Assembly: GCF_003018115.1 (NCBI RefSeq) | Contig: NZ_CP027457.1 | Source: Escherichia coli | GTDB taxonomy: Bacteria; Pseudomonadota; Gammaproteobacteria; Enterobacterales; Enterobacteriaceae | Length of the DNA: 64,000 nt | Direction: 5' to 3' (one strand) | Shown: in pieces, positions 5,222 to 19,001 of the stretch | Layout: each line of letters opens with the position of its first letter | How positions within the stretch are numbered: position 1 is the first letter of the stretch | Program-made: the position numbers and the translations under genes | The notes under the pieces: model-generated | Told to the model about the DNA's origin: nothing | Databases searched by the model: none | The model's input: the letters and a program-made list of their open reading frames with translations, nothing else

Positions 5222-5384
5222 ACATGTATTCCCGGTGAAAAAAGACAAAACCCCGCGCACCGGAAAGATGGCGGGGGATTCACGGAGATAATATCTGTCT
5301 GAAATTATTTGAAATGCAGGTATATGCAGCTAATTTGTATCAGCTTATTGGTACAGTACTAAACCTCATCTGACAGTCCGCTCT

Positions 5385-5399
5385 GTGCCAGGAGCGGAC
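5385..5399. repeat. 15-bp direct repeat copy A (GTGCCAGGAGCGGAC) within an 8-bp-stem palindrome GTCCGCTC-tgtgccag-GAGCGGAC
   Basis: Exact 15-mer shared with 6896-6910 in the same orientation; the two copies bracket the HEPN-motif gene and the short tyrosine recombinase gene. Confidence 0.6.
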
Positions 5400-5502
5400 A
5401 TTCCGATATTGAAAAGTAAATTGTCTTGCTGTATTTTTTCAGTCATAAAAATGAATAAGGATTCTCAGATGAGTGAGATATTTGAACTATTCAGTTCTAC
5501 TG

Positions 5503-6219
5503 TCAGTCCTTAAGTTTATTCATAGAAAGCCGCTCTTGGCGTTTAAGCTCATTTAAAGTGAAAAAAGCACATTTATTAGATAAAATATAAATAGTTCCTA
5601 CTAACCGATGTAAGCGCCTCATTTTTTCGGGCATAGAGAATTCAGCATTTTTGACAAACATTAAAGAATCAACCCCAGCAGAGAACATATATTGTAAACT
5701 TTCCATATTAAAAGCCTCTAGTGGATTTACTTCGTTAATATCAATACTATTAACAGACCTCTCTATTTCGAGGTAATCTTCACTTGTCATTGAATAGTCT
5801 ATTTTATGAGCGAATTTATTGCGGATAGAATTCAGCTTAACTAAAGAATTTGCAATTGAGAGAGGTAAACCTAAAGCAACACAGATCTCCAGTTTTGGAG
5901 TAAAATATCGTGATGGTTTAACGAACTGCTCAGTACCAGGCTTCCTAACATTGTTGATGAATACTTCCAAGAAATTCTCAATCAATAGGCTAAGTCTTAG
6001 CAAGACTGATGCTTCGTCATTTATACTTAGTAAAGGTGCAAATTTTTCTGCGTCAAGAAAGAAACCGAGGTCATTATTAATCGCTACATATCCAGTTAGA
6101 TTGTTATTTGACTTCATATTCATAAAAACCTTATCTTGTATATTAGCGGCATATTGTACCATAAATTGAATCGTGGTTTGTTCTAAGAATGGACACAAGA
6201 ACTTCCTCTCCTCACTCAT
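5503..6219 (-). CDS. hypothetical protein with a HEPN-like R-N-x-x-A-H motif (possible Abi-type RNase)
   Basis: AT-rich ORF; motif SIRNKFAH matches the HEPN Rx4-6H signature in its common RNxxAH form. Start uncertain: track starts at TTG 6228, ATG at 6219 (MSEER), or ATG at 6123 (MNMKS, preceded by AAGG). Confidence 0.5.
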   Translation of the reverse strand: MSEERKFLCPFLEQTTIQFMVQYAANIQDKVFMNMKSNNNLTGYVAINNDLGFFLDAEKFAPLLSINDEASVLLRLSLLIENFLEVFINNVRKPGTEQFVKPSRYFTPKLEICVALGLPLSIANSLVKLNSIRNKFAHKIDYSMTSEDYLEIERSVNSIDINEVNPLEAFNMESLQYMFSAGVDSLMFVKNAEFSMPEKMRRLHRLVGTIYILSNKCAFFTLNELKRQERLSMNKLKD

Positions 6220-6265
6220 AAGAGACAACCATACTCAAATCTCCCACATTGCAGGAGATTTGAGT

Positions 6266-6868
6266 ATGAACACGTCACCGTGGAACAAAGACCGTATCAT
6301 CGCCCAAAAAAGACCACTTCAGATATCTCATATCTGGGAGATCCGAATCCGGCTTGAACTGGAAGGTAAAACGCGCGATTTAGCTCTGTTCAATATGGCC
6401 CAGGACAGTAAGCTTCGAGGCTGTGATCTGGTCAAACTCAAAGTATCGAATGTGGCATATGGTAGCTCGGTTTCAAGCAGAGAAACGGTGTTGCAACAAA
6501 AAACCGGTAACCTTGTGCAATTCGAGATAACCAAAGGGACAAGAGAAGCTGTTGCTGCATTGATAAAGCTTGGCAATTTGCACAGTAAAGACTTCTTGTT
6601 TCGGTCTCGGGTCGGAACTAATCGGCACATATCAACCCAGCAATACAGCCGAATTTTTCATGGGTGGGTAGAAAAGCTTGGTCTCGAAGCTTCGCTGTAC
6701 AGCACACAATCCATGAGAAGAACAAAACCTTACCTAATCTACAAGAAAACCAAGAATCTCCGGATCATCCAACTTCTGTTGGGTCATAAGAAACTGGAAA
6801 GCACGATCCGTTATCTGGGCATTGAAGTCGATGATGCGTTAGAGACCTCTGAATCGATTGAAGTCTAA
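6266..6868 (+). CDS. short (~200 aa) tyrosine recombinase, catalytic domain only (FimB/FimE-sized)
   Basis: C-terminal LLGHKKLESTIRYLGIE (His...Tyr box), upstream Arg and HSMRRT boxes; start at ATG 6266 preceded by AGGAG at 6254-6258. Confidence 0.7.
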   Translation: MNTSPWNKDRIIAQKRPLQISHIWEIRIRLELEGKTRDLALFNMAQDSKLRGCDLVKLKVSNVAYGSSVSSRETVLQQKTGNLVQFEITKGTREAVAALIKLGNLHSKDFLFRSRVGTNRHISTQQYSRIFHGWVEKLGLEASLYSTQSMRRTKPYLIYKKTKNLRIIQLLLGHKKLESTIRYLGIEVDDALETSESIEV

Positions 6869-6895
6869 GGTTGTCAGAGCTGCAATAGCAGCCCC

Positions 6896-6910
6896 GTGCC
6901 AGGAGCGGAC
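6896..6910. repeat. 15-bp direct repeat copy B (GTGCCAGGAGCGGAC)
   Basis: Exact match to 5385-5399, same orientation, 28 nt past the recombinase stop codon. Confidence 0.6.
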
Positions 6911-7026
6911 CTAACTAAGTTCATACAACATTGATTATTGAAGATTAGGTCAGAAATAAATACTTTATTTTGATAATTTAGTTACGTTAGAACACCGCAA
7001 TGTACAACGTAAAAATGAGGAATAAT

Positions 7027-8388
7027 ATGACTCGGAGTGAAATAAACGTCTGGGATGAGAGAAGAGGTACCAATAGTCATCGAGTGGAGGAGATTCGATC
7101 TGAAGCTCAGCACGACCTTTCTCGATTGATTCACTCGTCTGCTTTCAGACGATTACAATCCAAAACACAGGTTCTTGGTCTGGGTGAAAGTGATTTCTAC
7201 CGCACACGACTGACTCATTCTATGGAAGTCGCACAAATCGGTTCAGGTCTTCTTGCTAAGTTGAAAATAAAATATAAAGGTAAAGAGCAAGAGCAATTTT
7301 TACCAGATAACGCTCTTATGCAGGCAGTATGTCTCGCACATGATATTGGACATCCTCCATTTGGTCACGGCGGTGAGGTAGCTCTTAACTACTGTATGCA
7401 GGATTACGGTGGTTTTGAAGGAAACGGTCAGACGCTTCGCATTCTCTCGAAACTAGATAAGTATACCTTAGAACACGGACTCGATCCTACACGCAGACTT
7501 CTGCTAGGCATACTGAAATATCCGGTTAAATACTCGGAGCTAGTGGTTACAAAAGACAGAATCCCGGTCACTATCGGATCACCAAACTGGCTCTTTAAGT
7601 CATCTGATTTTAAACCTCCAAAATGCTATCTAGATTCAGAATGCGATGTTGTAAAATTTGCTCTCTCACCATTTACTGAACAGGATCGGAGGCTTTTTAC
7701 TTCCGTTGAAGATGGTCAAACTAAATCCGATCATAAAAAAGCTTCTTATAAAGCTCTCGATACAACTATAATGGATCTTGCCGATGAAATTTCGTATTCG
7801 CTGCACGATTTGGAGGATGCTATTTCTCTCGGAATGGTGACACGAGAAATGTGGATGGAGCATTTCAGTGAACATGAAACCCTATTTACTAACTGCCATG
7901 GAAAAATATTTTCCGAAACATGCCAATCTGTAGCGGATAGCCTTTTTGGTGAAAGTTACAAGAGAAAAGAGTGCATCGGGATGCTGGTTCACCTGATGAT
8001 TACAAGCGTTGAGCTTATTACAAAGAATCCAGCATTCGAATGTGGCATGCTCAAATATAATGCGGTCCTTCCGGAAGCGGTCGAAGCACTACGGTTGAAA
8101 ATTTTCAAACTGGTCAAAAATAAAGTAATTAAGCATGAAAATGTACAGCAGCTTGAATTCAAGGGACAAAAGTTGATTGTTGAGCTCTTCGGTGTGTTGG
8201 CGAACGATCCGTGTCGGTTTCTACCTGCCTCAACGAGGGAAATTTACGAGCGGCAGACTAGCTTAGACAAGAAGGCTGGTATGCGAGTCATTTGCGACTA
8301 TGTTTCAGGGATGACTGATGACTATGCAACAAAGCTTTATGAGAAGATCCTTATTCCACGCAAAGGGTCTATTTTTGACCATCTCTAA
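7027..8388 (+). CDS. dGTP triphosphohydrolase-like HD-domain protein (candidate anti-phage dGTPase)
   Basis: HD motifs RLTHSMEV, HDIGHPPFGH, DLADEISYSLHDLEDA, YVSGMTDDYA; alignable by eye to E. coli Dgt but AT-rich and shorter (453 aa); start at ATG 7027 with GAGG six nt upstream. Confidence 0.8.
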   Translation: MTRSEINVWDERRGTNSHRVEEIRSEAQHDLSRLIHSSAFRRLQSKTQVLGLGESDFYRTRLTHSMEVAQIGSGLLAKLKIKYKGKEQEQFLPDNALMQAVCLAHDIGHPPFGHGGEVALNYCMQDYGGFEGNGQTLRILSKLDKYTLEHGLDPTRRLLLGILKYPVKYSELVVTKDRIPVTIGSPNWLFKSSDFKPPKCYLDSECDVVKFALSPFTEQDRRLFTSVEDGQTKSDHKKASYKALDTTIMDLADEISYSLHDLEDAISLGMVTREMWMEHFSEHETLFTNCHGKIFSETCQSVADSLFGESYKRKECIGMLVHLMITSVELITKNPAFECGMLKYNAVLPEAVEALRLKIFKLVKNKVIKHENVQQLEFKGQKLIVELFGVLANDPCRFLPASTREIYERQTSLDKKAGMRVICDYVSGMTDDYATKLYEKILIPRKGSIFDHL

Positions 8389-8449
8389 CACGGTAAGAAT
8401 GATACTCTGAGTTCAATTGACCTATAAACATTAACCAAGGCATCTACCA

Positions 8450-8470
8450 GGGGGGATATCAAATCCCCCC
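8450..8470 (+). terminator. GC-stem hairpin downstream of the dGTPase-like gene
   Basis: GGGGGGAtatcaaaTCCCCCC inverted repeat about 60 nt after the stop codon; the T-tract is weak. Confidence 0.35.
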
Positions 8471-9414
8471 ATTCTGAATTTGTTCATGCAGAATCGGTGA
8501 ACGTTCTCATCTGAGCGTTAAACGCCAATAATCATTGATCTACACTGATCATTAATACACCTTAATACCATTAGCGTCTTACTCCGTTATGAGAACAAAC
8601 GCGAACTTCCGCTGTTCGCTCAAAGCAGACCATTCGCTCAGTTAACGCATCAGTGTCGTGCTAGAAGTAGAAGTGGTTAACAACAATGTGAGTTAATCAA
8701 CGGAGAGCAGGTCAACTCTAACCTGTATCAAAAAACAAATGTGTCATAAAGATGCCGCATGCCTTAATTTGAGTATAATTGAGACGGAAGTAGACGGTTT
8801 ATGACTAGATATTGTTGATATATAGCTATTTGAAGAGTTGTAGCGCAAGCGCATAGCCCAAACTAATAACGCTACGCCCCTTATCAAAGAGCGGCAACGA
8901 TGCACAGCTCGCACGAGACAATATTCGCACAAGAAATCAGGTTCGGAAATAACCAGCTCTGGCATGGCGGGGAGAGTATCAATGGTCAGGCTTTCGGTAA
9001 GATGCGGCGGGATGAGGTCGGCGTGGGTTACAGCAGTACAAGGTCGCCCACAGAGGGTAAGCCACAGCGTGGAATCCTCGGTTTCTATCAGGGATTCGGC
9101 GAAGCGGGCGCAGTTGTCGACCAAGACGATGAAATCCATTGTGGCATTATAAGGGAACGAACAATAGATCGAGTAAATCGCAGTCAGGGACAAGGATTGT
9201 AGTCATAGAGAAGTCTCCTGTAACGGTTTTCAGGAGGCTAATCCCGACGCCTGATTTCGCAGGCGCGGAAAGAGAGGATACTGCGACCATTAATCCGCCA
9301 CAAGTCATTTACGTACATAAATCGCGCAGTCAGATCCGACTCCCACTGTAGTTCTTGAACTTGATACCACATTTAGCTAATTTAGCTAAATTATCCAGTA
9401 TACCAGTGGTTGCC

Positions 9415-9699: not shown

Positions 9700-12138
9700 A
9701 TGGCTATCAAAAAAACCGAACTCTATTCTTCCCTGTGGGCAAGCTGCGACGAACTGCGTGGCGGGATGGACGCCAGCCAGTACAAAGACTATGTACTGAC
9801 CCTGCTGTTTATGAAGTACGTTTCCGATAAGTATAAAGGCGATCCTTACGGGATGATCGTGATACCCAAAGGAGCCAGCTTTGACGATATGGTTGCGCTG
9901 AAAAATGACAAAGAGATCGGCGACAAAATCAACAAAATCATCCACAAGCTGGCGGAAGAGAACGGCCTGAAGGGCGTCATCGACGAAGCCGACTTTAACG
10001 ACGAAGATAAGCTCGGCAAAGGCAAGGAAATGATTGACCGCCTGAGCAAGCTTGTCGGTATCTTTGAAGGGTTAGATCTCTCCAGCAACCGGGCCGAAGG
10101 CGACGATCTGTTGGGCGATGCCTATGAATATCTGATGCGTCACTTCGCAACCGAATCCGGCAAGAGTAAAGGGCAGTTTTACACTCCGGCGGAGGTGTCA
10201 CGTATTCTGGCGAAGGTGATTGGTATTACTCCCGATACGCCGCGAGATGCAACGGTTTATGACCCAACCTGTGGCTCTGGTTCGCTGCTGTTGAAAGTGA
10301 ATGATGAAGCCCGGCGCGGACTATCGATTTTCGGCCAGGAGATGGATAACGCTACCAGTGCACTGGCGCGGATGAACATGATTCTGCATAACAATGCCAC
10401 CGCGAAAATCTGGCAGGGTAATACGCTGAGCGATCCGCAGTGGAAAGAGGCGAACGGCAAACTGAAAGCCTTCGATTTTGCCGTGGCGAACCCGCCTTTT
10501 TCCAATAAAAACTGGACCAACGGGTTGACGCCGAAAAAAGATCCGTTTGAACGCTTCGGCTGGGGCATTCCGCCGGAGAAAAACGGCGATTATGCTTTTT
10601 TGCTGCATATCATTAAAAGCCTGAAAAGTACCGGCAAAGGCGCGGTGATCCTGCCCCATGGCGTACTGTTTCGCGGTAACGCCGAGGCAAATATCCGTGA
10701 AAATCTAATCAAGCAGGGCTATATCAAAGGCGTTATTGGTTTGCCGGCCAACCTGTTTTACGGCACCGGCATCCCGGCGTGCATTATTGTGATTGATAAA
10801 GAGCACGCCCACAGCCGCAAAGGCATTTTTATGATCGACGCCAGTCGGGGCTTTATCAAAGATGGCAACAAGAACCGCCTGCGTAGCCGAGATATTCACC
10901 GCATTGTGGACGTGTTCAACCATCAGCGAACGGTGCCGGGCTACAGCCGGATGGTGCCCTCCAGCGAGATCGCCGGAAATGATTACAACCTGAATATTCC
11001 TCGCTATATCGAGAGCGGCGAGCCGGAAGATTTGCACGATCTGACCGCGCACTTACAGGGCGGTATTCCAGCACGCGATGTGGATGCTTTGCAGGATTAC
11101 TGGCGGGTATTCCCTGCCCTGCGCAACGTGCTGTTTGCTGACGACCGTTCCGGTTACTGTCGGGCGCAGGTGAACGCGCAGCAGGTGAAACCAACCATTC
11201 TGGCACATCAGGAGTTTAAGGATTTTGCCACCCGCAGCCTGCTACCGTTTAAAGCGTGGGTGAAAGAGGCAAGTCTGGAAGAGATTCGCAAAGGTGATAA
11301 ACCCAAAGCGCTGATCCACGATATCAGCGAGATGTTGCTTGTGCAGTACGCCAACAGTGAGTTGCTGAACAAGTACAGCGTGTACCAGATCCTGATGGAT
11401 TACTGGGCTGATGTCATGCAGGACGATGTGTATGTGATTATGCAGGATGGCTGGCAAGCCGCCGCGCAAATCCGCGAGCTTCAACCGGTGAAAGGCAAAG
11501 ATGGCAAAAACATCTGGAAAGAAACGCACGATTTCGAGTTTACCAAACAGCGCTACAAGGCCGATGTGCTACCCCGTTCACTAGTGGAAATTCGCTGCTT
11601 CCCGGAACTGCTGGATACGTTGAACCGCGCGCAGGAGCGCAGTGAAGAAGCCAGTCGTCAGCTAGCGGAACTCATCGAGGAGCAGGCAGGGGAAGAGGAT
11701 CTGCTGGCTGAGGCGAAGAACGATAAAGATAAGGTGACGCAAAAGCTGGTGAATGCCCGTCTGGCACAGTTGAAGAAAACCCCTGCCGACCCAGATGAGC
11801 TGGCAGTGCTGAACCGCTGTCTGGCGCTGATTAAGGCCGAGGCCAGTGCGAAAAAAGCGCTGAAAGCCGCACAGGAAGCGTTGGATCGAGCGGTATTTAA
11901 ACATTATCCCACGCTGGATGAAACAGCGATTAAAACGCTGGTAGTGCAGGATAAGTGGCTGGCAACGTTGCAGGCAGGAATCAAGGCGGAGATTGAGCGT
12001 ATTACCCAGCAACTGGCGTCGCGCGTAAAGGAGCTGGAAGAGCGTTATGCTGAACCGTTGCCAGCGCTTGAAGCCTCCGTTGAGGCGTTGAGCGAGAAAG
12101 TGGCCGGGCATTTGCGGGCGATGGGGCTGGAGTGGTGA
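9700..12138 (+). CDS. hsdM: type I restriction-modification N6-adenine DNA methyltransferase subunit, long form (812 aa)
   Basis: N-terminal HsdM signature LWASCDELRGGMDASQYKDYVLTLLFMKYVSD, AdoMet motif DPTCGSGSLL, catalytic NPPF; about 300-aa C-terminal extension rich in charged/coiled-coil-like residues. Confidence 0.95.
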   Translation: MAIKKTELYSSLWASCDELRGGMDASQYKDYVLTLLFMKYVSDKYKGDPYGMIVIPKGASFDDMVALKNDKEIGDKINKIIHKLAEENGLKGVIDEADFNDEDKLGKGKEMIDRLSKLVGIFEGLDLSSNRAEGDDLLGDAYEYLMRHFATESGKSKGQFYTPAEVSRILAKVIGITPDTPRDATVYDPTCGSGSLLLKVNDEARRGLSIFGQEMDNATSALARMNMILHNNATAKIWQGNTLSDPQWKEANGKLKAFDFAVANPPFSNKNWTNGLTPKKDPFERFGWGIPPEKNGDYAFLLHIIKSLKSTGKGAVILPHGVLFRGNAEANIRENLIKQGYIKGVIGLPANLFYGTGIPACIIVIDKEHAHSRKGIFMIDASRGFIKDGNKNRLRSRDIHRIVDVFNHQRTVPGYSRMVPSSEIAGNDYNLNIPRYIESGEPEDLHDLTAHLQGGIPARDVDALQDYWRVFPALRNVLFADDRSGYCRAQVNAQQVKPTILAHQEFKDFATRSLLPFKAWVKEASLEEIRKGDKPKALIHDISEMLLVQYANSELLNKYSVYQILMDYWADVMQDDVYVIMQDGWQAAAQIRELQPVKGKDGKNIWKETHDFEFTKQRYKADVLPRSLVEIRCFPELLDTLNRAQERSEEASRQLAELIEEQAGEEDLLAEAKNDKDKVTQKLVNARLAQLKKTPADPDELAVLNRCLALIKAEASAKKALKAAQEALDRAVFKHYPTLDETAIKTLVVQDKWLATLQAGIKAEIERITQQLASRVKELEERYAEPLPALEASVEALSEKVAGHLRAMGLEW

Positions 12139-13445
12139 TGGTGGATTTAATGGTGAATGAGCAACGATCAGGTACGGCGGGGAAAGATGTGCCTGCGGGG
12201 TATAAGCTGACTGAGGTGGGGGTGATTCCTGAGGATTGGGTAGTAATCTCTATTGATGACTGTACAACCAAAGTTGGTAGTGGAAAAACACCAACTGGTG
12301 GAGCATCTGTTTATATTGATAGCGGACGCCCTTTTGTCCGTAGCCAAAATGTTGATTGGGGAAGATTAGATCTCGCCGATGTCGTACATATTACAGATGA
12401 AACCCATAACACATTCTCTGGTTCTGAAATTCAGCAAGATGATGTTTTACTCAACATAACGGGAGCATCTATCGGCCGATGCGCTAAAGCTGATTTTAGG
12501 GTTATAGGTGGTAATGTTAACCAACATGTTTGCATCATCAGAACAGAGGCAAAAAAACTCTCCCCATCCTTACTGGTTGAATTAATCAATTCAAATTATG
12601 GACAAAACCAGATTGATAGTTATCAAGCCGGAGGAAACAGAGAAGGACTGAATTTTTCTCAAGTTAAAAATCTTAAGTTTGCTATTACACCAAACTCCCT
12701 TGAACAAACGGAAATTGTCAGAACATTAAATGATATTAATGCATTCACTCTCGCTCTGGAAAACTTAATTGCTAAAAAACAGGCCATAAAAGCCGCTGCT
12801 ATGCAACAACTACTCACCGGTAAAACCCGTTTGCCGCAGTTTGCGTTGCGCAAAGATGGATCTGCTAAGAGATATAAAAAGAGCAAGTTGGGGGAGACTC
12901 CAGAAGATTGGGCAGTTAATAATATTGGAGATTTATTCTCCATTACCGCAGGAGGAGATTTAAGACAGTCTGAATTCTCTAATATTCAATCTGAAAAACA
13001 TCTTTACCCTATTTATTCCAATGCAATTAGTCATTATGGTTTATATGGCTATTGCCAGAGTTATGATTATGTTGGTGACTATCTAACAATCACTGCGAGG
13101 GGAGGAATCGGCCATGCCGTGGCAAGAAAAGGAAGATTCTGTGCAATTGGACGATTATTAGTTCTTAGTCCAAAAGGAGATTCAAACGTAAAATTTTATG
13201 AAGGGTATATAAACCAATACTTATCATTTGCAAATGAGAGCACTGGAGTCCCTCAACTTACAGCTCCTCAAGTTGCAAAATATCCGGTTGTTTCCCCATG
13301 CATTGAAGAACAAACCGCCATCGCCACCATCCTCTCCGATATGGACAAGGAAATTCAGACCCTGCAACAACGTCTGGACAAAACCCGTCAGCTTAAACAG
13401 GGGATGATGCAGGAGCTGTTAACCGGGAAAACACGCTTAATATAA
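12138..13445 (+). CDS. hsdS: type I restriction-modification specificity subunit with two target-recognition domains
   Basis: Two AT-rich variable blocks separated and followed by conserved LTGKTRL repeats ([13 protein letters not shown] and [11 protein letters not shown]); ATG at 12138 overlaps the hsdM TGA (TGATG). Confidence 0.9.
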
Positions 13446-13456
13446 AAGGGAAACCT

Positions 13457-14107
13457 ATGACTACAGCGCCAGCCTCAATCCGCAAAAAGCCCTGATCTGG
13501 CGTATCGTCCATCGGGACAATATCCCGTGGATTCTGGACAATGGTCTGCACTGCGGCAACAGCCCGGTGCAGGCTGCTAACTGGATCAATATCGGCAACC
13601 CGGAGCTTATCGGCAAGCACGCCGGACATCCGGTACCTGTCGGGACGGGCGGGACACTGCGTGACTATGTGCCATTTTATTTTACCCCCTTCTCGCCAAT
13701 GCTGATGAACATCCACAGCGGACGTGGCGGCATTAAGCAACGCCCCAATGAAGAGATCGTTATTCTGGTCAGCAGCCTGCGGCACGTGGCAGCACACGAC
13801 GTGCCCTTCGTGTTTACCGACAGCCATGCTTACTATAACTGGACCAACTACTACACCAGTCTGGATAGTCTGGACCAGATCGACTGGCCCATTTTGCAGG
13901 CACGGGACTTTCGCCGCGATCCAGACGATCCGGCTAAATTTGAACGCTATCAGGCAGAGGCGCTAATCTGGCAACACTGCCCGATCTCGCTGCTGGATGG
14001 GATAATTTGTTACAGCGAAGAGGTCAGGTTACAATTAGAACAATGGTTGTTTCAGCGTAATCTAACAATGTCCGTTCACACACGGGCTGGATTGGTACTT
14101 CTCATGA
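13457..14107 (+). pseudogene. darT: DarT-like (DUF4433) DNA ADP-ribosyltransferase gene, reading frame disrupted as read
   Basis: ATG 13457 with AAGGG upstream opens a frame that stops after 12 codons; DarT-like sequence ([46 protein letters not shown]) continues in the -1 frame from about 13459 to 14103; the original frame resumes for the last codons before a TGA that overlaps the darG ATG (ATGA at 14104-14107). Confidence 0.55.
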
Positions 14108-15171
14108 TCACATATACACAAGGCAATTTACTGGACGCACCGGTGGAAGCTCTGGTGAATACGGTTAATACCGTCGGTGTCATGGGGAAAGGCATCGCGT
14201 TGATGTTTAAAGAGCGCTTCCACGAAAATATGAAAGCCTATGCCCTCGCCTGCAAACAAAAGCAGGTGATCACCGGCAAAATGTTCATTACCGAAACCGG
14301 GGAACTGATGGGACCGCGCTGGATTGTTAATTTTCCGACCAAACAGCACTGGCGCGCTGACTCCCGCATGGGGTGGATTGAAGATGGCTTACAAGACTTA
14401 CGTCGATTTTTGATTGAAGAGAACGTGCAATCCATCGCCATTCCACCGCTGGGCGCAGGCAACGGTGACTTGAACTGGCCGGACGTTCGGGCGCAGATTG
14501 AATCTGCCCTTGGCGACCTTCAGGACGTTGATATCCTGATTTACCAACCAACTGAAAAATACCAGAACGTTGCCAAAAGCACTGGCGTAAAAAAGCTCAC
14601 TCCCGCCAGAGCCGCCATCGCTGAACTGGTGCGTCGCTACTGGGTATTGGGGATGGAGTGCAGCCTACTGGAAATCCAGAAACTGGCCTGGCTGTTACAA
14701 CGCGCCCTTAAGCAGCATCAACAGGACGATATCCTCAAACTGCGGTTTGAAGCTCACTATTATGGCCCCTATGCGCCCAATCTGAACCATCTGCTTAATG
14801 CGCTGGACGGCACCTATCTTAAAGCCGAGAAACGCATCCCGGACAGCCAACCGCTGGATGTGATCTGGTTTAACGATCAGAAAAAAGAACACGTTAATGC
14901 GTATCTGAACAGCGAAGCCAGAGAGTGGCTACCGGCGCTGGAGCAGGTCAGCCAGTTAATTGACGGCTTTGAATCGCCGTTTGGTCTGGAGCTGCTGGCA
15001 ACCGTAGACTGGTTGCTGAGCCGTGGCGAATGTCAACCAACACTGGATTCCGTTAAGGAAGGGCTGCACCAGTGGCCTGCGGGCGAACACTGGGCCAGCC
15101 GTAAGTTGAGGCTGTTTGATAATAATAATCTGCAATTTGCCATTAACCGCGTAATGGAGTTCCATTGCTGA
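14104..15171 (+). CDS. darG: DarG-like macrodomain protein (predicted antitoxin / ADP-ribosyl hydrolase)
   Basis: [39 protein letters not shown] with IPPLGAGNG is a macrodomain signature matching my recollection of DarG; as read it is fused in frame to the upstream DarT-like region (track ORF 13567-15171). Confidence 0.7.
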
Positions 15172-15189
15172 GGGTTTAAGGAGCGCCTT

Positions 15190-18100
15190 TTGAGTACCGT
15201 GGGCCAGCGCGAACGCGCCACACAGCAGCGTCTGATTCAGTTTTTTGTTGAAGATTTAGGTTACCGCCATCTGAGTCACCGCACCGGGTACACCGGGAAC
15301 AGCAACATCGACACTAATATACTGAGCGCGTGGCTAAAACGGCGCGGCGTTAATGATACGTTGATCACCCGGGCGTTGCGGCAACTGGATTCCGCCGCCG
15401 CTCTGGGCGAAGGCAAAAAACTCTATTACGCCAATAAAGAGGTCTATCGCCTGCTACGTTACGGCGTGAAAGACAAAGAAGGCGCAGGCGAGCAGAACCA
15501 AACCGTGTGGCTGATTGACTGGGCCAACCCACAAGCCAATGATTTCGCCATCGCCGATGAGGTGACGGTCAAAGGCGAGTACTGCAAGCGCCCGGATCTG
15601 GTGCTGTACGTTAACGGCATTGCGCTGGGCGTGATTGAACTTAAGCGTTCGTCAGTGCACGTCAGCGAAGGCATCCGGCAGAATCTCGATAATCAAAAGA
15701 AAACCTTTATCCGCGATTTCTTCACCACTATGCAGTTAGTGATGGCGGGCAACGATACGCAGGGCCTGCGCTACGGCACCATCGAAACCCCGGAAAAATA
15801 CTATCTGGAGTGGAAAGAAGATAATCCAGGCGACTATACACATAAACTCGACTTTCATTTAAGTCGTCTGTGTAGCAAATCCAGGCTGTTGGATATCGTC
15901 CATAATTACATTGCCTTTGATGTCGGAGTGAAAAAACTCTGCCGCCATAATCAGTTCTTCGGCGTCGAGGCGGCTAAACAACATATTGCCCGTCGTGAAG
16001 GCGGTATTATCTGGCACACACAGGGATCGGGTAAAAGCCTGACGATGGTCTGGCTGGCGAAGTGGATCCGTGAAAATGTGCCAAACTCCCGCGTGTTGAT
16101 TGTGACTGACCGCACCGAACTGGATGAACAGATCGAAAGCGTGTTTATGGGCGTGAATGAAGATATTTATCGCACCTCCAGCGGCAACGATCTTATCGCA
16201 ACGCTCAATCATCCTAACCCGTGGCTCATTTGCTCGCTGGTGCATAAATTTGGTCGTCGCAGCGAAGCTGAAGACAATGCGGCTACCGACGCCTTTATCA
16301 CCGAATTACAGCAGTCCCTGACGAAAACATTCCGCGCCAAAGGCGATCTGTTTGTTTTTGTGGACGAGTGCCACCGCACACAATCCGGCAAGCTGCATAA
16401 CGCCATGACTGCCATTCTGCCGGACGCCCTGTTTATCGGTTTTACCGGCACACCGCTGATGAAGAAAGATAAGAAGAAGTCGGTTGAGGTGTTCGGCCCT
16501 TATATCCATACCTATAAATTTGATGAAGCGGTGGCCGACGGTGTGGTGCTGGATCTGCGCTACGAGGCACGCGATATTGACCAGTATCTGACATCAGAGA
16601 AAAAGGTCGATGACTGGTTTGAAGCCAAGACTCGCGGTTTGTCGAATTTAGCCAGGACCCAGCTTAAGCAAAAGTGGGGATCAATGCAGAAGCTGCTCTC
16701 CAGCAAGTCGAGGCTGGAGCAGATCGTTAACGACATTTTGCTGGATATGGATACCCGTCCACGCCTGATGGACGGGCGCGGCAACGCCATGCTGGTATGC
16801 AGCAGTATCTATCAAGCCTGCAAGGTTTACGAGATGTTCAGCCAGACCGAGCTGGCAGGAAAAGTAGCGATTGTGACCAGCTATCGCCCCGATGCCGCCA
16901 GCATCAAAGGCGAAGAAACGGGCGAAGGGTTAACGGAGAAACTCTCTAAACACGCCACCTATCGTAAAATGTTGGCTGACTATTTTGAACAAAGTGAAGA
17001 GAAGGCCGCCGCACGCATTACCGAGTTCGAGCGGGAAGTGAAACAGCGTTTTATTGAAGAGCCGGGGCAAATGCGCCTGCTTATCGTGGTGGATAAGCTG
17101 CTGACTGGCTTTGACGCGCCGTCCGCCACCTATCTCTACATTGATAAAACCATGACCGACCATACGCTGTTTCAGGCGATTTGTCGGGTGAACCGGCTGG
17201 ACGGTGAGGATAAAGAGTATGGCTATATTATCGATTATAAAGATCTGTTCCGTTCGCTGGATAAAGCGATTACCGATTACACCACGGGCGCGTTTGATGA
17301 TTACGATCGGGACGATGTGGCCGGGTTGCTGAAAGACAGGCTGGAGCAGGCGCAACTGGATCTCGACAGCGCGCTGGAGATGGTTCGCAGCTTATGTGAA
17401 CCCGTCAAAACCCCGCGCAGCCTGCAGGACTATCAGCACTATTTTTGCGGTGAATCAGGAGAGAATCAGACTTCGTTAAACGAAAAAGAGGCGCTGCGCC
17501 TGACATTTTACCAGTGCGTCGCCCGTCTGCTACGCGCTTATGCCAGCATCGCCAATGAAATGCCGGAAGCAGGCTACACTGCCGAAGAGGTAGAGAGCAT
17601 TCGCGCCGAAGTCGCTGAATTCGAAAAACTGCGCTATGAGATTAAGCTGACCAGCGGCGATCTTCTGGATATGAAGCGCTTTGAACCCGCTATGCGTCAT
17701 TTACTGGATATGTATGTTCGCGCCGATGATAGCGAAGTGCTGATGGATTTTGAAGAGTTAAGTCTGATTGAACTGATTGTCGAGAAAGGCTTGGCGGCGA
17801 CCGTCGCCCTGCCGGATGATATCCGTAATAATCAGGATGCGATGGCGGAAACCATCGAAAACAACGTGCGCAAAACCATCGTGGATGAAAACCCGGTTAA
17901 CCCAAAATACTATGGACGCATGTCGCAGCTGCTGGATGAACTGATTACCCTTCGCCGACAAAATGCGCTCAATTATCAGCAGTATCTGGAACGTATCCGC
18001 GATTTGTGTAAACAAGTCATCCGCCCGGAGCAAACCGCCGGAGCGTGCTACCCTGCCACCATGGATACACAAGCAAAGCGCGCCTTCTATGATAACTTCG

Positions 18101-18285
18101 GCCACGACGAGGTACTGGCGACCCGCATAGATACGACGATTCGCTATACCAAAAGGGCAGAGTGGATTGGCGATCGTTTTAAAGAACGGGAAATTGCCAA
18201 CGCATTACGTGAAGAGACCGCCAGCTATAATATTGATATTGATGAGGTGATAGCGCTTGCCCGTCAGCAGAAGGAATATCACTGA
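15190..18285 (+). CDS. hsdR: type I restriction-modification restriction subunit (SF2 helicase/nuclease)
   Basis: 1031 aa; helicase motifs HTQGSGKSLT, VFVDECHRTQ, FIGFTGTP; apparent TTG start at 15190 with AAGGAG eight nt upstream. Confidence 0.93.
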   Translation: MSTVGQRERATQQRLIQFFVEDLGYRHLSHRTGYTGNSNIDTNILSAWLKRRGVNDTLITRALRQLDSAAALGEGKKLYYANKEVYRLLRYGVKDKEGAGEQNQTVWLIDWANPQANDFAIADEVTVKGEYCKRPDLVLYVNGIALGVIELKRSSVHVSEGIRQNLDNQKKTFIRDFFTTMQLVMAGNDTQGLRYGTIETPEKYYLEWKEDNPGDYTHKLDFHLSRLCSKSRLLDIVHNYIAFDVGVKKLCRHNQFFGVEAAKQHIARREGGIIWHTQGSGKSLTMVWLAKWIRENVPNSRVLIVTDRTELDEQIESVFMGVNEDIYRTSSGNDLIATLNHPNPWLICSLVHKFGRRSEAEDNAATDAFITELQQSLTKTFRAKGDLFVFVDECHRTQSGKLHNAMTAILPDALFIGFTGTPLMKKDKKKSVEVFGPYIHTYKFDEAVADGVVLDLRYEARDIDQYLTSEKKVDDWFEAKTRGLSNLARTQLKQKWGSMQKLLSSKSRLEQIVNDILLDMDTRPRLMDGRGNAMLVCSSIYQACKVYEMFSQTELAGKVAIVTSYRPDAASIKGEETGEGLTEKLSKHATYRKMLADYFEQSEEKAAARITEFEREVKQRFIEEPGQMRLLIVVDKLLTGFDAPSATYLYIDKTMTDHTLFQAICRVNRLDGEDKEYGYIIDYKDLFRSLDKAITDYTTGAFDDYDRDDVAGLLKDRLEQAQLDLDSALEMVRSLCEPVKTPRSLQDYQHYFCGESGENQTSLNEKEALRLTFYQCVARLLRAYASIANEMPEAGYTAEEVESIRAEVAEFEKLRYEIKLTSGDLLDMKRFEPAMRHLLDMYVRADDSEVLMDFEELSLIELIVEKGLAATVALPDDIRNNQDAMAETIENNVRKTIVDENPVNPKYYGRMSQLLDELITLRRQNALNYQQYLERIRDLCKQVIRPEQTAGACYPATMDTQAKRAFYDNFGHDEVLATRIDTTIRYTKRAEWIGDRFKEREIANALREETASYNIDIDEVIALARQQKEYH

Positions 18286-19001
18286 TGCCAATCATGCAAA
18301 TAGGCTCGTTACACTTGCTGGTCAACCGTAAGGCGATTAAGAATCTGCATATCAGCGTGCTGCCGCCTGATGGCAAAGTCCGCGTTTCAGCGCCGGAACA
18401 TATGACGGAGACGGCGATTCGTATGGCGGTTGCTTCACGCTTTCGCTGGATCAGAAAACAGCAGCAGGATTTCGCCAGACAGCCTCGTCAATCAGAGAGG
18501 GAAATGGTCAGCGGAGAGTGCCACTATCTTTGGGGCCGAAGATATCGCCTACTTGTGATTGAGCGTCACGGGCGTCACGAAGTAAAAGTTGCGGGAAATA
18601 ATAAGCTCCAGCTTTATGTTCAACCGGGAACCCGTGATGAAAATAAGGCATTGGCGTTAAGTGAATTTTATCGACATGAACTAAAACAGCAGGTGGCTAA
18701 GCTTCTACCTGAATGGCAGGACCGAATCGGTGTTCCCCTAACATTCTGGGGCATCAAAAAGATGAAAACCTTTTGGGGCACCTGTAACACTACAACAAAA
18801 CGAATCTGGCTCAATCTGGAGCTAATTAAGAAGCCGCCGGAGTGTCTGGAGTATATTCTGGTGCATGAACTGGTTCATCTTCTGGAACGTCACCATAATG
18901 CTCGCTTCCGGTTGCATATGGATCGGTTTATTCCTGACTGGCGTGAGCGTCGGGATTTGTTAAATAATATGCCGTTAGCGTTTGAGGCATGGGAGTATTG
19001 A
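18285..19001 (+). CDS. HExxH zinc metallopeptidase (M48/DUF45-like) coupled to hsdR
   Basis: HELVHLLE motif; ATG overlaps the hsdR stop (TGATG at 18283-18287). Confidence 0.8.
   Translation: MPIMQIGSLHLLVNRKAIKNLHISVLPPDGKVRVSAPEHMTETAIRMAVASRFRWIRKQQQDFARQPRQSEREMVSGECHYLWGRRYRLLVIERHGRHEVKVAGNNKLQLYVQPGTRDENKALALSEFYRHELKQQVAKLLPEWQDRIGVPLTFWGIKKMKTFWGTCNTTTKRIWLNLELIKKPPECLEYILVHELVHLLERHHNARFRLHMDRFIPDWRERRDLLNNMPLAFEAWEY

Follow-up and report, generated by a model that had tools for sequence, protein, structure and literature searches.

A HepS-family HEPN protein encoded in a palindrome-bounded cassette on an Escherichia coli genomic island

What is the function of a short, AT-rich gene whose product carries a single recognisable motif, and how might it have come to lie on an E. 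coli genomic island? The gene in question occupies positions 5503–6219, on the minus strand, of a 64-kb stretch of E. coli 2014C-4135 DNA (the window, to which all coordinates refer), and RefSeq annotates its product as a 238-amino-acid (aa) ‘hypothetical protein’ (WP_001288265.1). An initial annotation, made from the sequence alone, had described an orphan protein of 230–240 aa with the HEPN-type motif SIRNKFAH, and had suggested an abortive-infection-type ribonuclease (RNase). We conclude that the protein is a new member of the already known HepS family, and we consider it very likely that it is a single-domain HEPN ribonuclease acting alone as an abortive-infection defence. The gene has the following features (dN/dS is the ratio of non-synonymous to synonymous substitution rates).

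5506–6123, minus strand, with the stop codon at 5503–5505: HepS-family solo HEPN protein, most likely 206 aa (homology, fold, dN/dS)
5806–5829, minus strand: SIRNKFAH, the HEPN Rx4-6H catalytic motif, with R101, N102 and H106 in 206-aa numbering (invariance among relatives)
6124–6219, minus strand: annotated N-terminal extension of 32 codons, unconserved and probably untranslated, with the likely promoter and ribosome-binding signals inside

The protein belongs to the HepS family

SIRNKFAH is encoded at 5829–5806 on the minus strand and corresponds to residues 131–138 of the 238-aa form. Judged from typical residue frequencies, a bare R-x4-6-H pattern is expected by chance about 0.7 times in a protein of this size and hence carries little weight alone; the fuller form, R-N-x-x-A-H, is expected about 0.001 times. 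RNKFAH is invariant across 16 close relatives, and the R, N and H of the motif are invariant across 80 relatives, so the HEPN RNase signature noticed at the outset is genuine. A profile built from the 16 relatives matched two PDB entries at full length, 9oij (‘HepS’, E value 1.9e-60) and 9oik (‘HepS-H105A’, E value 7e-59), with the match to 9oij_A spanning residues 10–204. HepS, published in January 2026, is STM14_3211 from the Gifsy-1 prophage of Salmonella Typhimurium 14028 (Sargen et al., Nature 2026; PMC13043305). Pairwise BLASTP against Gifsy-1 HepS gave 39% identity over 193 aa (E value 8e-54), and identities of 35–50% to HepS fall in the band that its authors call ‘closely related’ (PMC13043305). 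The protein is therefore not the orphan that had been supposed: its family includes a member of known structure.

The predicted structure agrees with this assignment. An AlphaFold2 model built from 80 relatives (predicted local distance difference test, pLDDT, 87; predicted template-modelling score, pTM, 0.84) is all-helical, with low-confidence tails at residues 1–14 and 201–206, and places the RNxxAH motif at the C-terminal end of helix 88–106. When this model was compared with the PDB using Foldseek, the top four matches were HepS chains with template-modelling (TM) scores of 0.81–0.94; for 9oij_B, the TM scores were 0.86 and 0.94 and the root-mean-square deviation was 1.6 Å. Far behind followed YggD/MtlR, AF_0298 and SO_3166, all of them other HEPN or HEPN-like proteins. 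Structure prediction, which had been proposed as a check on the HEPN fold, thus yielded an all-helical model that matches HepS and not a non-HEPN fold. With a clear homologue, in both sequence and fold, in the characterised HepS anticodon nuclease (PMC13043305), the suggestion of an abortive-infection-type HEPN RNase is borne out at the level of family.

The gene might instead encode a HEPN toxin from a different class, for example a HEPN-MNT-type toxin–antitoxin toxin, an AbiD/AbiF (Abi_2) protein, or a RiboL-PSP or DUF4145-type HEPN protein tied to the nearby restriction system. The sole Pfam match is to HEPN_RiboL-PSP (PF18735), a weak similarity over the motif region (independent E value 8.2e-4, 19.8 bits, model positions 95–179 of 191), and a type I restriction–modification (R-M) system lies 3.5 kb away. 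However, the full-length HepS match is stronger by more than 50 orders of magnitude, and the PF18735 match is best read as general HEPN similarity. Moreover, the gene travels without this R-M system in all its other contexts, and its cassette contains neither an MNT nucleotidyltransferase gene nor any other antitoxin-like gene, the adjacent genes being those for a recombinase and a GTPase. We regard a toxin of another HEPN class as very unlikely.

Several further observations indicate that this HepS-family protein stands alone. It is shorter than 250 aa and carries no extra domain, the weak HEPN similarity being all that Pfam detects. The cassette interior (approximately 5400–6202) contains one conserved open reading frame (ORF), and the neighbouring genes differ in every genomic context examined for the gene and its relatives. 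A search for an antitoxin-like neighbour, as the initial annotation had advised, came up empty, with no second conserved ORF in the cassette. Nor should such a partner be expected, given that HepS needs no other protein and rests in an inactive state.

The start codon is probably misannotated

The minus-strand ORF at 5503–6228 is intact and would encode 241 aa if counted from a TTG codon. Its coding sequence has a GC content of 33.8%, as compared to 50–60% in the flanking Ag43 and GTPase genes, confirming the AT-richness described previously. The locus is rare: among 5426 complete E. coli genomes it was found in 5 (strains 2014C-4135, 1303, CFIAFB20180511, C311 and STEC2017-197), with at least 99.9% identity in all of them. 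Close relatives from outside E. coli (P0002–P0015) are 189–213 aa long and align from M33 of the annotated protein, such that the annotated N-terminal 32 codons have no counterpart in the alignment. The closest non-E. coli copy (locus L008; 85% protein identity) gives a similar picture at the DNA level: similarity starts about 55 nucleotides (nt) upstream of the ATG at 6121–6123 and does not run across the annotated first 32 codons. Ahead of this internal ATG are a candidate extended −10 element (TG at 6161–6160 and TACAAT at 6158–6153) and a candidate Shine-Dalgarno sequence (AAGG at 6132–6129), which L008 keeps as TATAAT and GAGG, respectively. No Shine-Dalgarno sequence was seen near the annotated ATG (6217–6219), which falls within a decayed palindromic site at 6203–6226 that is described below.

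Given that close relatives start at M33, and that DNA similarity to L008 ends about 55 nt upstream, the true HEPN protein is most likely the 206-aa product of 5506–6123, starting at ATG 6121–6123. We rejected the annotated 238-aa start on the basis of the conservation boundary and the placement of the ribosome-binding site and promoter. Hence, RefSeq has probably assigned WP_001288265.1 the wrong start codon, and the initial estimate of 230–240 aa is probably too long. The 32-codon extension (6124–6219) is probably untranslated and would hold the likely promoter and ribosome-binding site. We interpret a 116-aa antisense ORF at 5819–6169 as arising incidentally from the AT-rich sequence of the coding strand.

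Catalytic and switch residues are conserved, and the trigger-reading surface has diverged

HepS is a single-protein abortive-infection system that is expressed constitutively and is non-toxic by default (PMC13043305). Its activity requires a tetramer, whose formation depends on F66, K78 and L83, and in the resting tetramer R100 and H105 of paired protomers are buried approximately 17 Å apart (PMC13043305). The trigger is the nascent siphovirus tail-tip protein J, specifically residues 902–933 of lambda J, in which F924 is critical; Gifsy prophages carry Ile at this position of J and thereby evade HepS (PMC13043305). J binding to each protomer joins the disordered N- and C-termini of HepS into a composite beta-sheet; as a result, Y20 and I107 move, H105 takes up a new position and two active sites open, and the active enzyme then cuts anticodon loops, chiefly that of tRNA-Thr(GGT) (PMC13043305). 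R100, N101 and H105 are needed for both defence and RNA cleavage, Y20A and I107A abolish activity although Y20F is active, and K71 touches the anticodon in the HepS model (PMC13043305).

Most of these positions are retained in the E. coli protein. In 206-aa numbering, R100, N101 and H105, which serve in catalysis and tRNA contact, correspond to R101, N102 and H106; of the switch residues, I107 is conserved as I108, G19 is conserved, and Y20 corresponds to F21. The anticodon-contacting K71 is replaced by R, and the tetramer-interface residues F66 and L83 are identical. The two proteins thus have in common a single HEPN domain of approximately 200 aa, the fold (TM scores 0.86–0.94), an RNxxAH motif in the same place, the catalytic R and H, the tRNA-contacting N and K (as R), the switch Y (as F) and I, and the lack of a partner gene; their termini are likewise predicted to be flexible. 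dN/dS is 0.15 and 0.17 against the two closest relatives, indicating that the gene is under purifying selection.

Other observations weigh against a straightforward transfer of HepS function to the E. coli protein. At the third tetramer-interface position, K78 of HepS, this protein and most members of its clade have E. S13, D15, S202 and T203, which hydrogen-bond the J peptide in HepS, are A, N, K and L, and these positions vary across the clade. With identity of only 39%, the same target tRNAs cannot be assumed. In addition, no PADLOC or NCBIfam model recognises the protein, so these collections add no independent family assignment. A PHROGs search returned ‘unknown function’ families only, and tblastn against 50,697 deposited phage genomes gave no match. 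Divergence at the S13, D15, S202 and T203 positions bears on trigger specificity and not on family membership by descent. Thus, from the aligned residues, the catalytic machinery and the switch are kept and the trigger-reading surface has diverged. The trigger may differ from that of HepS because the four J-bonding residues are not conserved and K78 is changed to E; for the former reason, trigger identity is the weakest step of our proposal.

It is quite possible, if somewhat short of an even chance, that the protein has the fold and chemistry of HepS but senses a phage structural or late protein other than J, and possibly cuts a different set of tRNAs. Replacement of the four J-bonding residues is consistent with this. 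So is the pattern of variation within the clade, where sequence varies most in the N- and C-terminal tails, the segments from which HepS builds its trigger-binding sheet. The change of K71 to R would fit a different tRNA set. On the other hand, much of the HepS trigger interface is backbone beta-sheet pairing, which tolerates side-chain changes, and the switch is preserved, with F, I and G at the positions of Y20, I107 and G19. The distribution of the relatives, described in the next section, also fits J-sensing.

The gene might also be a decaying or silent passenger with no current function. The rarity of the gene (5 of 5426 genomes), the decay of the flanking palindromic site and the frameshift annotated by RefSeq in the neighbouring darT would all suit such a passenger. 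However, the ORF is intact with dN/dS of 0.15–0.17, all tested functional residues are kept, and the −10 box and ribosome-binding site are conserved, so we consider a non-functional passenger highly improbable.

The case for a HepS-type defence protein is made by its homology and fold, by the conserved residues for catalysis, tRNA contact and switching, by purifying selection and by the lack of a partner gene; the oligomeric state, phage-protein activation and tRNA targets of the E. coli protein would follow by analogy with the HepS paper. By homology with Gifsy-1 HepS, the protein would probably be expressed constitutively, from its own promoter, as a resting oligomer (a tetramer in HepS) that holds the Arg and His of paired RNxxAH motifs apart. 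Binding of a phage late protein to the flexible N- and C-terminal tails would probably switch it on. The opened enzyme would then cut the anticodon loops of particular tRNAs, stopping translation and aborting phage production. The surroundings of the gene, which include an anti-phage dGTPase, a type I R-M system and DarTG, constitute a defence neighbourhood.

PrrC, RloC and RemN are latent tRNA anticodon-loop nucleases that act in abortive phage defence, and they depend on partner proteins (EcoprrI; RemA/RemI) or contain ATPase domains. The E. coli protein differs from all three in being a solo HEPN protein. RemN, of the RemAIN system, is a HEPN protein that is also found in Gifsy-1 (PMC13043305). 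Tha, from Staphylococcus aureus prophages, is another tail-activated HEPN defence (PMC11087260); it is unrelated according to the HepS authors, being a non-specific RNase with a different tail trigger that is repressed by its own prophage (PMC13043305).

For a protein annotated as hypothetical, the HepS assignment supplies a specific and testable mechanism, that of a stand-alone HEPN enzyme that cuts anticodon loops under the control of a phage protein. Given that the E. coli protein departs from the sole characterised HepS at the trigger-reading residues, it also offers a natural experiment on the evolution of trigger specificity in the family. Two points, the divergence of its trigger surface and its cassette setting outside a prophage, raise this family member slightly above the routine.

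Relatives occur in phages, plasmids and non-phage contexts

In Gifsy-1, hepS occupies a temperate-phage accessory-gene position (PMC13043305), and relatives of the E. coli protein are found in comparable slots. Three relatives with 62–72% identity (P0005, P0007 and P0010) are phage-borne. One relative in this identity range adjoins the integrase gene of a lambdoid prophage, and the others lie between replication genes and terminase in phages with podovirus-type head genes. The phage head genes Head-tail_con, Bbp19 and GP7 were observed at loci L014–L017 and L009, whose HepS-family proteins (P0005, P0010) are 62–71% identical to the E. coli protein. No J-type tail-tip gene was found in the sequence examined for these phages, which would therefore not themselves trigger a J-sensing HepS. 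This fits J-sensing without self-harm, and counts to that extent against a non-J trigger.

Relatives with 85–88% identity (L008 and L013) lie between palindromic sites in non-phage contexts. A more distant family member, a 186-aa protein with 34% identity, is encoded by the largest gene of a 2.2-kb mobilizable plasmid found in E. coli and Klebsiella (NZ_CP147122.1, 2203 bp, locus L140; NZ_AP022156.1). HepS itself is prophage-borne, whereas the E. coli copy lies in a palindrome-bounded cassette beside a small tyrosine recombinase gene on a non-phage island. This copy shows that HepS-type genes are not tied to prophages; hence, the published logic, in which a prophage tunes its own defence, need not hold for every copy.

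Palindromic sites bound the HEPN cassette

The 15-bp sequence GTGCCAGGAGCGGAC occurs exactly twice in the window, at 5385–5399 and 6896–6910 (0.10 occurrences expected), and the two copies bracket the HEPN gene and a gene for a 200-aa recombinase. The initial description of a repeat-flanked cassette with a short recombinase therefore stands. As evidence for function it does not, because close relatives of the HEPN gene lie in ordinary phage moron positions without a nearby recombinase. The left 15-bp copy forms the right-hand two-thirds of a longer, 24-bp palindrome with a 9-6-9 structure. We refer to sites of the form GTCCGCTCT-GTGCCA-GGAGCGGAC as type A, and to sites with the same arms in the opposite orientation and the spacer TCGCTC as type B. 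Sites and genes in the window are arranged as A, HepS-like gene, B, recombinase, A′, dGTPase, B, with features as follows.

5376–5399, plus strand: type A palindrome GTCCGCTCT-GTGCCA-GGAGCGGAC, left cassette boundary (breakpoints; equivalent site after the orthologous gene in L008 and L013)
6203–6226, plus strand: decayed type B site TTCCTCTCC-TCACTC-ATAAGAGAC, where the HEPN cassette ends on the right and the recombinase module begins
6230–6268, no strand assigned: perfect 15-bp inverted repeat over the recombinase Shine-Dalgarno sequence and ATG (fold −14.3 kcal/mol, z −7.35)
6266–6868, plus strand: 200-aa tyrosine recombinase with little beyond the catalytic domain (PHROG 216 ‘integrase’, PF00589, RefSeq WP_001399565.1)
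6887–6910, plus strand: A′ site AGCAGCCCC-GTGCCA-GGAGCGGAC, containing the second 15-bp copy, 18 nt after the recombinase stop codon
7027–8388, plus strand: anti-phage dGTPase, next cassette (NCBIfam NF041026, E value 3e-168; PADLOC dGTPase model)
8607–8630, plus strand: type B site TTCCGCTGT-TCGCTC-AAAGCAGAC, closing the dGTPase cassette (similarity to E. coli S40 ends exactly here)

The decayed site at 6203–6226 differs at 4 of 24 positions from the type B site at the same position in locus L002, GTCCGCTCC-TCGCTC-ATAAGGGAC, and resembles the type B site of L003. Breakpoints of similarity to other genomes coincide with the sites. Approximately 3000 E. coli genomes are similar downstream of the GTPase gene, and in the best matches listed this similarity stops at 5399–5402. 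Similarity of the recombinase module to other E. coli starts at 6200–6218 and ends at 6909–6910. The dGTPase cassette (6896–8607) is shared, with 97% identity, with a Rac-like lambdoid prophage of E. coli S40 (L019, 6001–7711), the similarity starting at the A spacer and stopping at the B site. The S40 prophage array was also seen to hold other cassettes, including one with a DUF4145 (HEPN) gene. Downstream of the last B site in the window (8607–8630), positions 8631–8672 comprise the linker-like sequence CATTCGCTCAGTTAACGC followed by ATCAGTGTC-GTGCTA-GAAGTAGAA, which resembles an A site that has decayed; it is possible that the array formerly extended in the direction of the R-M genes.

Taken together, the two kinds of site enclose varied cargo in enterobacterial prophages and islands (L002, L003, L008, L011–L013, L019 and L020–L139). 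The same A/B order around the recombinase was found in other E. coli with different cargo: a restriction endonuclease together with an HNH endonuclease, three hypothetical genes, a DUF6530 protein, and a cation diffusion facilitator (CDF) transporter together with cytochrome b. Scanning viral contigs with the exact pattern of the A site gave at least 120 loci (L020–L139), the first 80 of which were used to determine spacing. These 80 loci have a regular pattern of A, 0.4–5.3 kb of cargo, B, 18 bp and A; the B-to-A gap is exactly 18 bp in 22 of 28 cases, and the linker is conserved. The 66-nt junction of B, 18-nt linker and A can fold as a single imperfect hairpin (−20.1 kcal/mol, z −5.6). Across the full set of at least 120 loci, at least 88 distinct cassettes fall into at least 67 cargo clusters, with cargo in both orientations. 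About half of 20 representative cargo proteins match PADLOC models, namely PD-T7-1, a retron-type PRTase effector, AbiEii, TIR, HNH, a type IV restriction enzyme and SIR2-like.

We ruled out the sites as intrinsic terminators, since no T-run follows them. We also ruled out the 15-bp repeat as an attL/attR pair of a 1.5-kb element, since the same sites form regular arrays without the recombinase. No Rfam family matched the palindromic sites or the junction. We found no published description of the sites or of the recombinase-linked cassettes, within a literature coverage that leaves out most subscription-journal papers.

The sites resemble those of integron cassettes (IntI/attC) and Acinetobacter pdif modules (Xer) in that short imperfect palindromes bound cargo of 0.4–5.3 kb, often defence genes. 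Further resemblances are that the junction can fold as a 66-nt imperfect hairpin and that a small tyrosine recombinase is dedicated to the system, with a site in constant position beside its gene; as in pdif modules, A and B sites alternate in orientation. However, the 24-bp sites with their 9-6-9 structure are unlike attC or dif, the recombinase is 200 aa, cargo occurs in both orientations, and the arrays lie within prophages and islands. We tentatively suggest, as a possible though rather doubtful reading, that the HepS-like gene is cargo of an undescribed, integron-like cassette system of Gammaproteobacteria that the highly conserved 200-aa recombinase moves between lambdoid prophages, integrative islands and chromosomes. 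A HepS variant would then have been carried out of its phage setting, with its trigger specificity possibly changed. A 2026 preprint reports that defence genes are rapidly exchanged at phage and island hotspots but offers no mechanism; such a system, if active, would provide one. The cassette and recombinase architecture is a more novel lead than the HEPN gene.

A small tyrosine recombinase is associated with the sites

The recombinase gave weak matches to Xer, integron-integrase and invertase models of NCBIfam. The best of these was to an XerA-type model (E value 1e-10), and the match to the integron-integrase model was insignificant (E value 0.014; 14.6 bits against a cutoff of 435). A phmmer search of PDB sequences gave no match. 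On visual inspection, the catalytic R, K, R, H and Y appear recognisable, with Q apparently replacing the first His of the HxxR box. Conservation within the family is unusually strong, with relatives at 72–93% identity ranging across distant Gammaproteobacteria, from E. coli to Proteus, Idiomarina and Cycloclasticus (L141–L146). In E. coli, Proteus, Idiomarina and marine contigs, a hairpin a few nt after the recombinase stop codon is followed by GTGCCA and an AGCGGAC-type arm, corresponding to A′; the 24-nt A′ window starts approximately 18 nt after the stop codon in all lineages checked. The Proteus gene is also preceded by a B half-site and by an inverted repeat over the Shine-Dalgarno sequence and ATG. 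This inverted repeat differs from that of E. coli on both arms, such that pairing is kept; these features suggest translational or operator control. Among the viral loci, the recombinase gene is present in approximately 8 of the at least 120, and it directly follows a B site in the arrays inspected.

This arrangement of sequences is good circumstantial evidence for action of the recombinase on the two kinds of site; recombination products were not observed. Alternatively, homologous recombination through the conserved 66-bp junctions might move the cassettes, for which the PeSL cassettes of phage T4 would be a possible parallel (PMC2839356).

Association with the recombinase raises a further possibility, that the HEPN protein is an addiction-type nuclease that serves mainly the cassette, by penalising loss of the recombinase cassette, and not the host. 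The HEPN gene is indeed divergently paired with the recombinase gene inside the 15-bp repeats. However, the recombinase is found beside many unrelated cargos, the HEPN gene occurs without it in L008, L013 and phages, and HepS is non-toxic by default. We therefore consider an addiction role extremely unlikely, and favour abortive-infection defence as the function of the HEPN protein.

The surrounding island

The 64-kb window is a large integrative island with a conserved module of the Ag43/YeeP/CbtA type, contact-dependent inhibition (CDI) loci, lactate genes and copies of the insertion sequence IS66. It contains no phage structural genes, indicating that it is not a prophage, and no tRNA genes. 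The defence stretch of the island consists of the HepS-like gene, the recombinase, the anti-phage dGTPase and the type I R-M system with embedded DarTG. At approximately 9700–18300 (L001, 16440–25025), DarT and DarG lie between hsdS and hsdR of the type I R-M operon, and an M48 peptidase gene follows. DarT is frameshifted in RefSeq; in the window, a single 534-aa ORF (13567–15171) covers both DarT-like and DarG-like sequence. The remainder, at approximately 14000–64000 (L018), is a mosaic with two CDI loci, in which one cdiA carries the annotation of a tRNA nuclease and orphan toxin/immunity modules occur, as well as genes for lactate utilisation, several copies of IS66 and, at the far end, an integrase gene beside ycdU.

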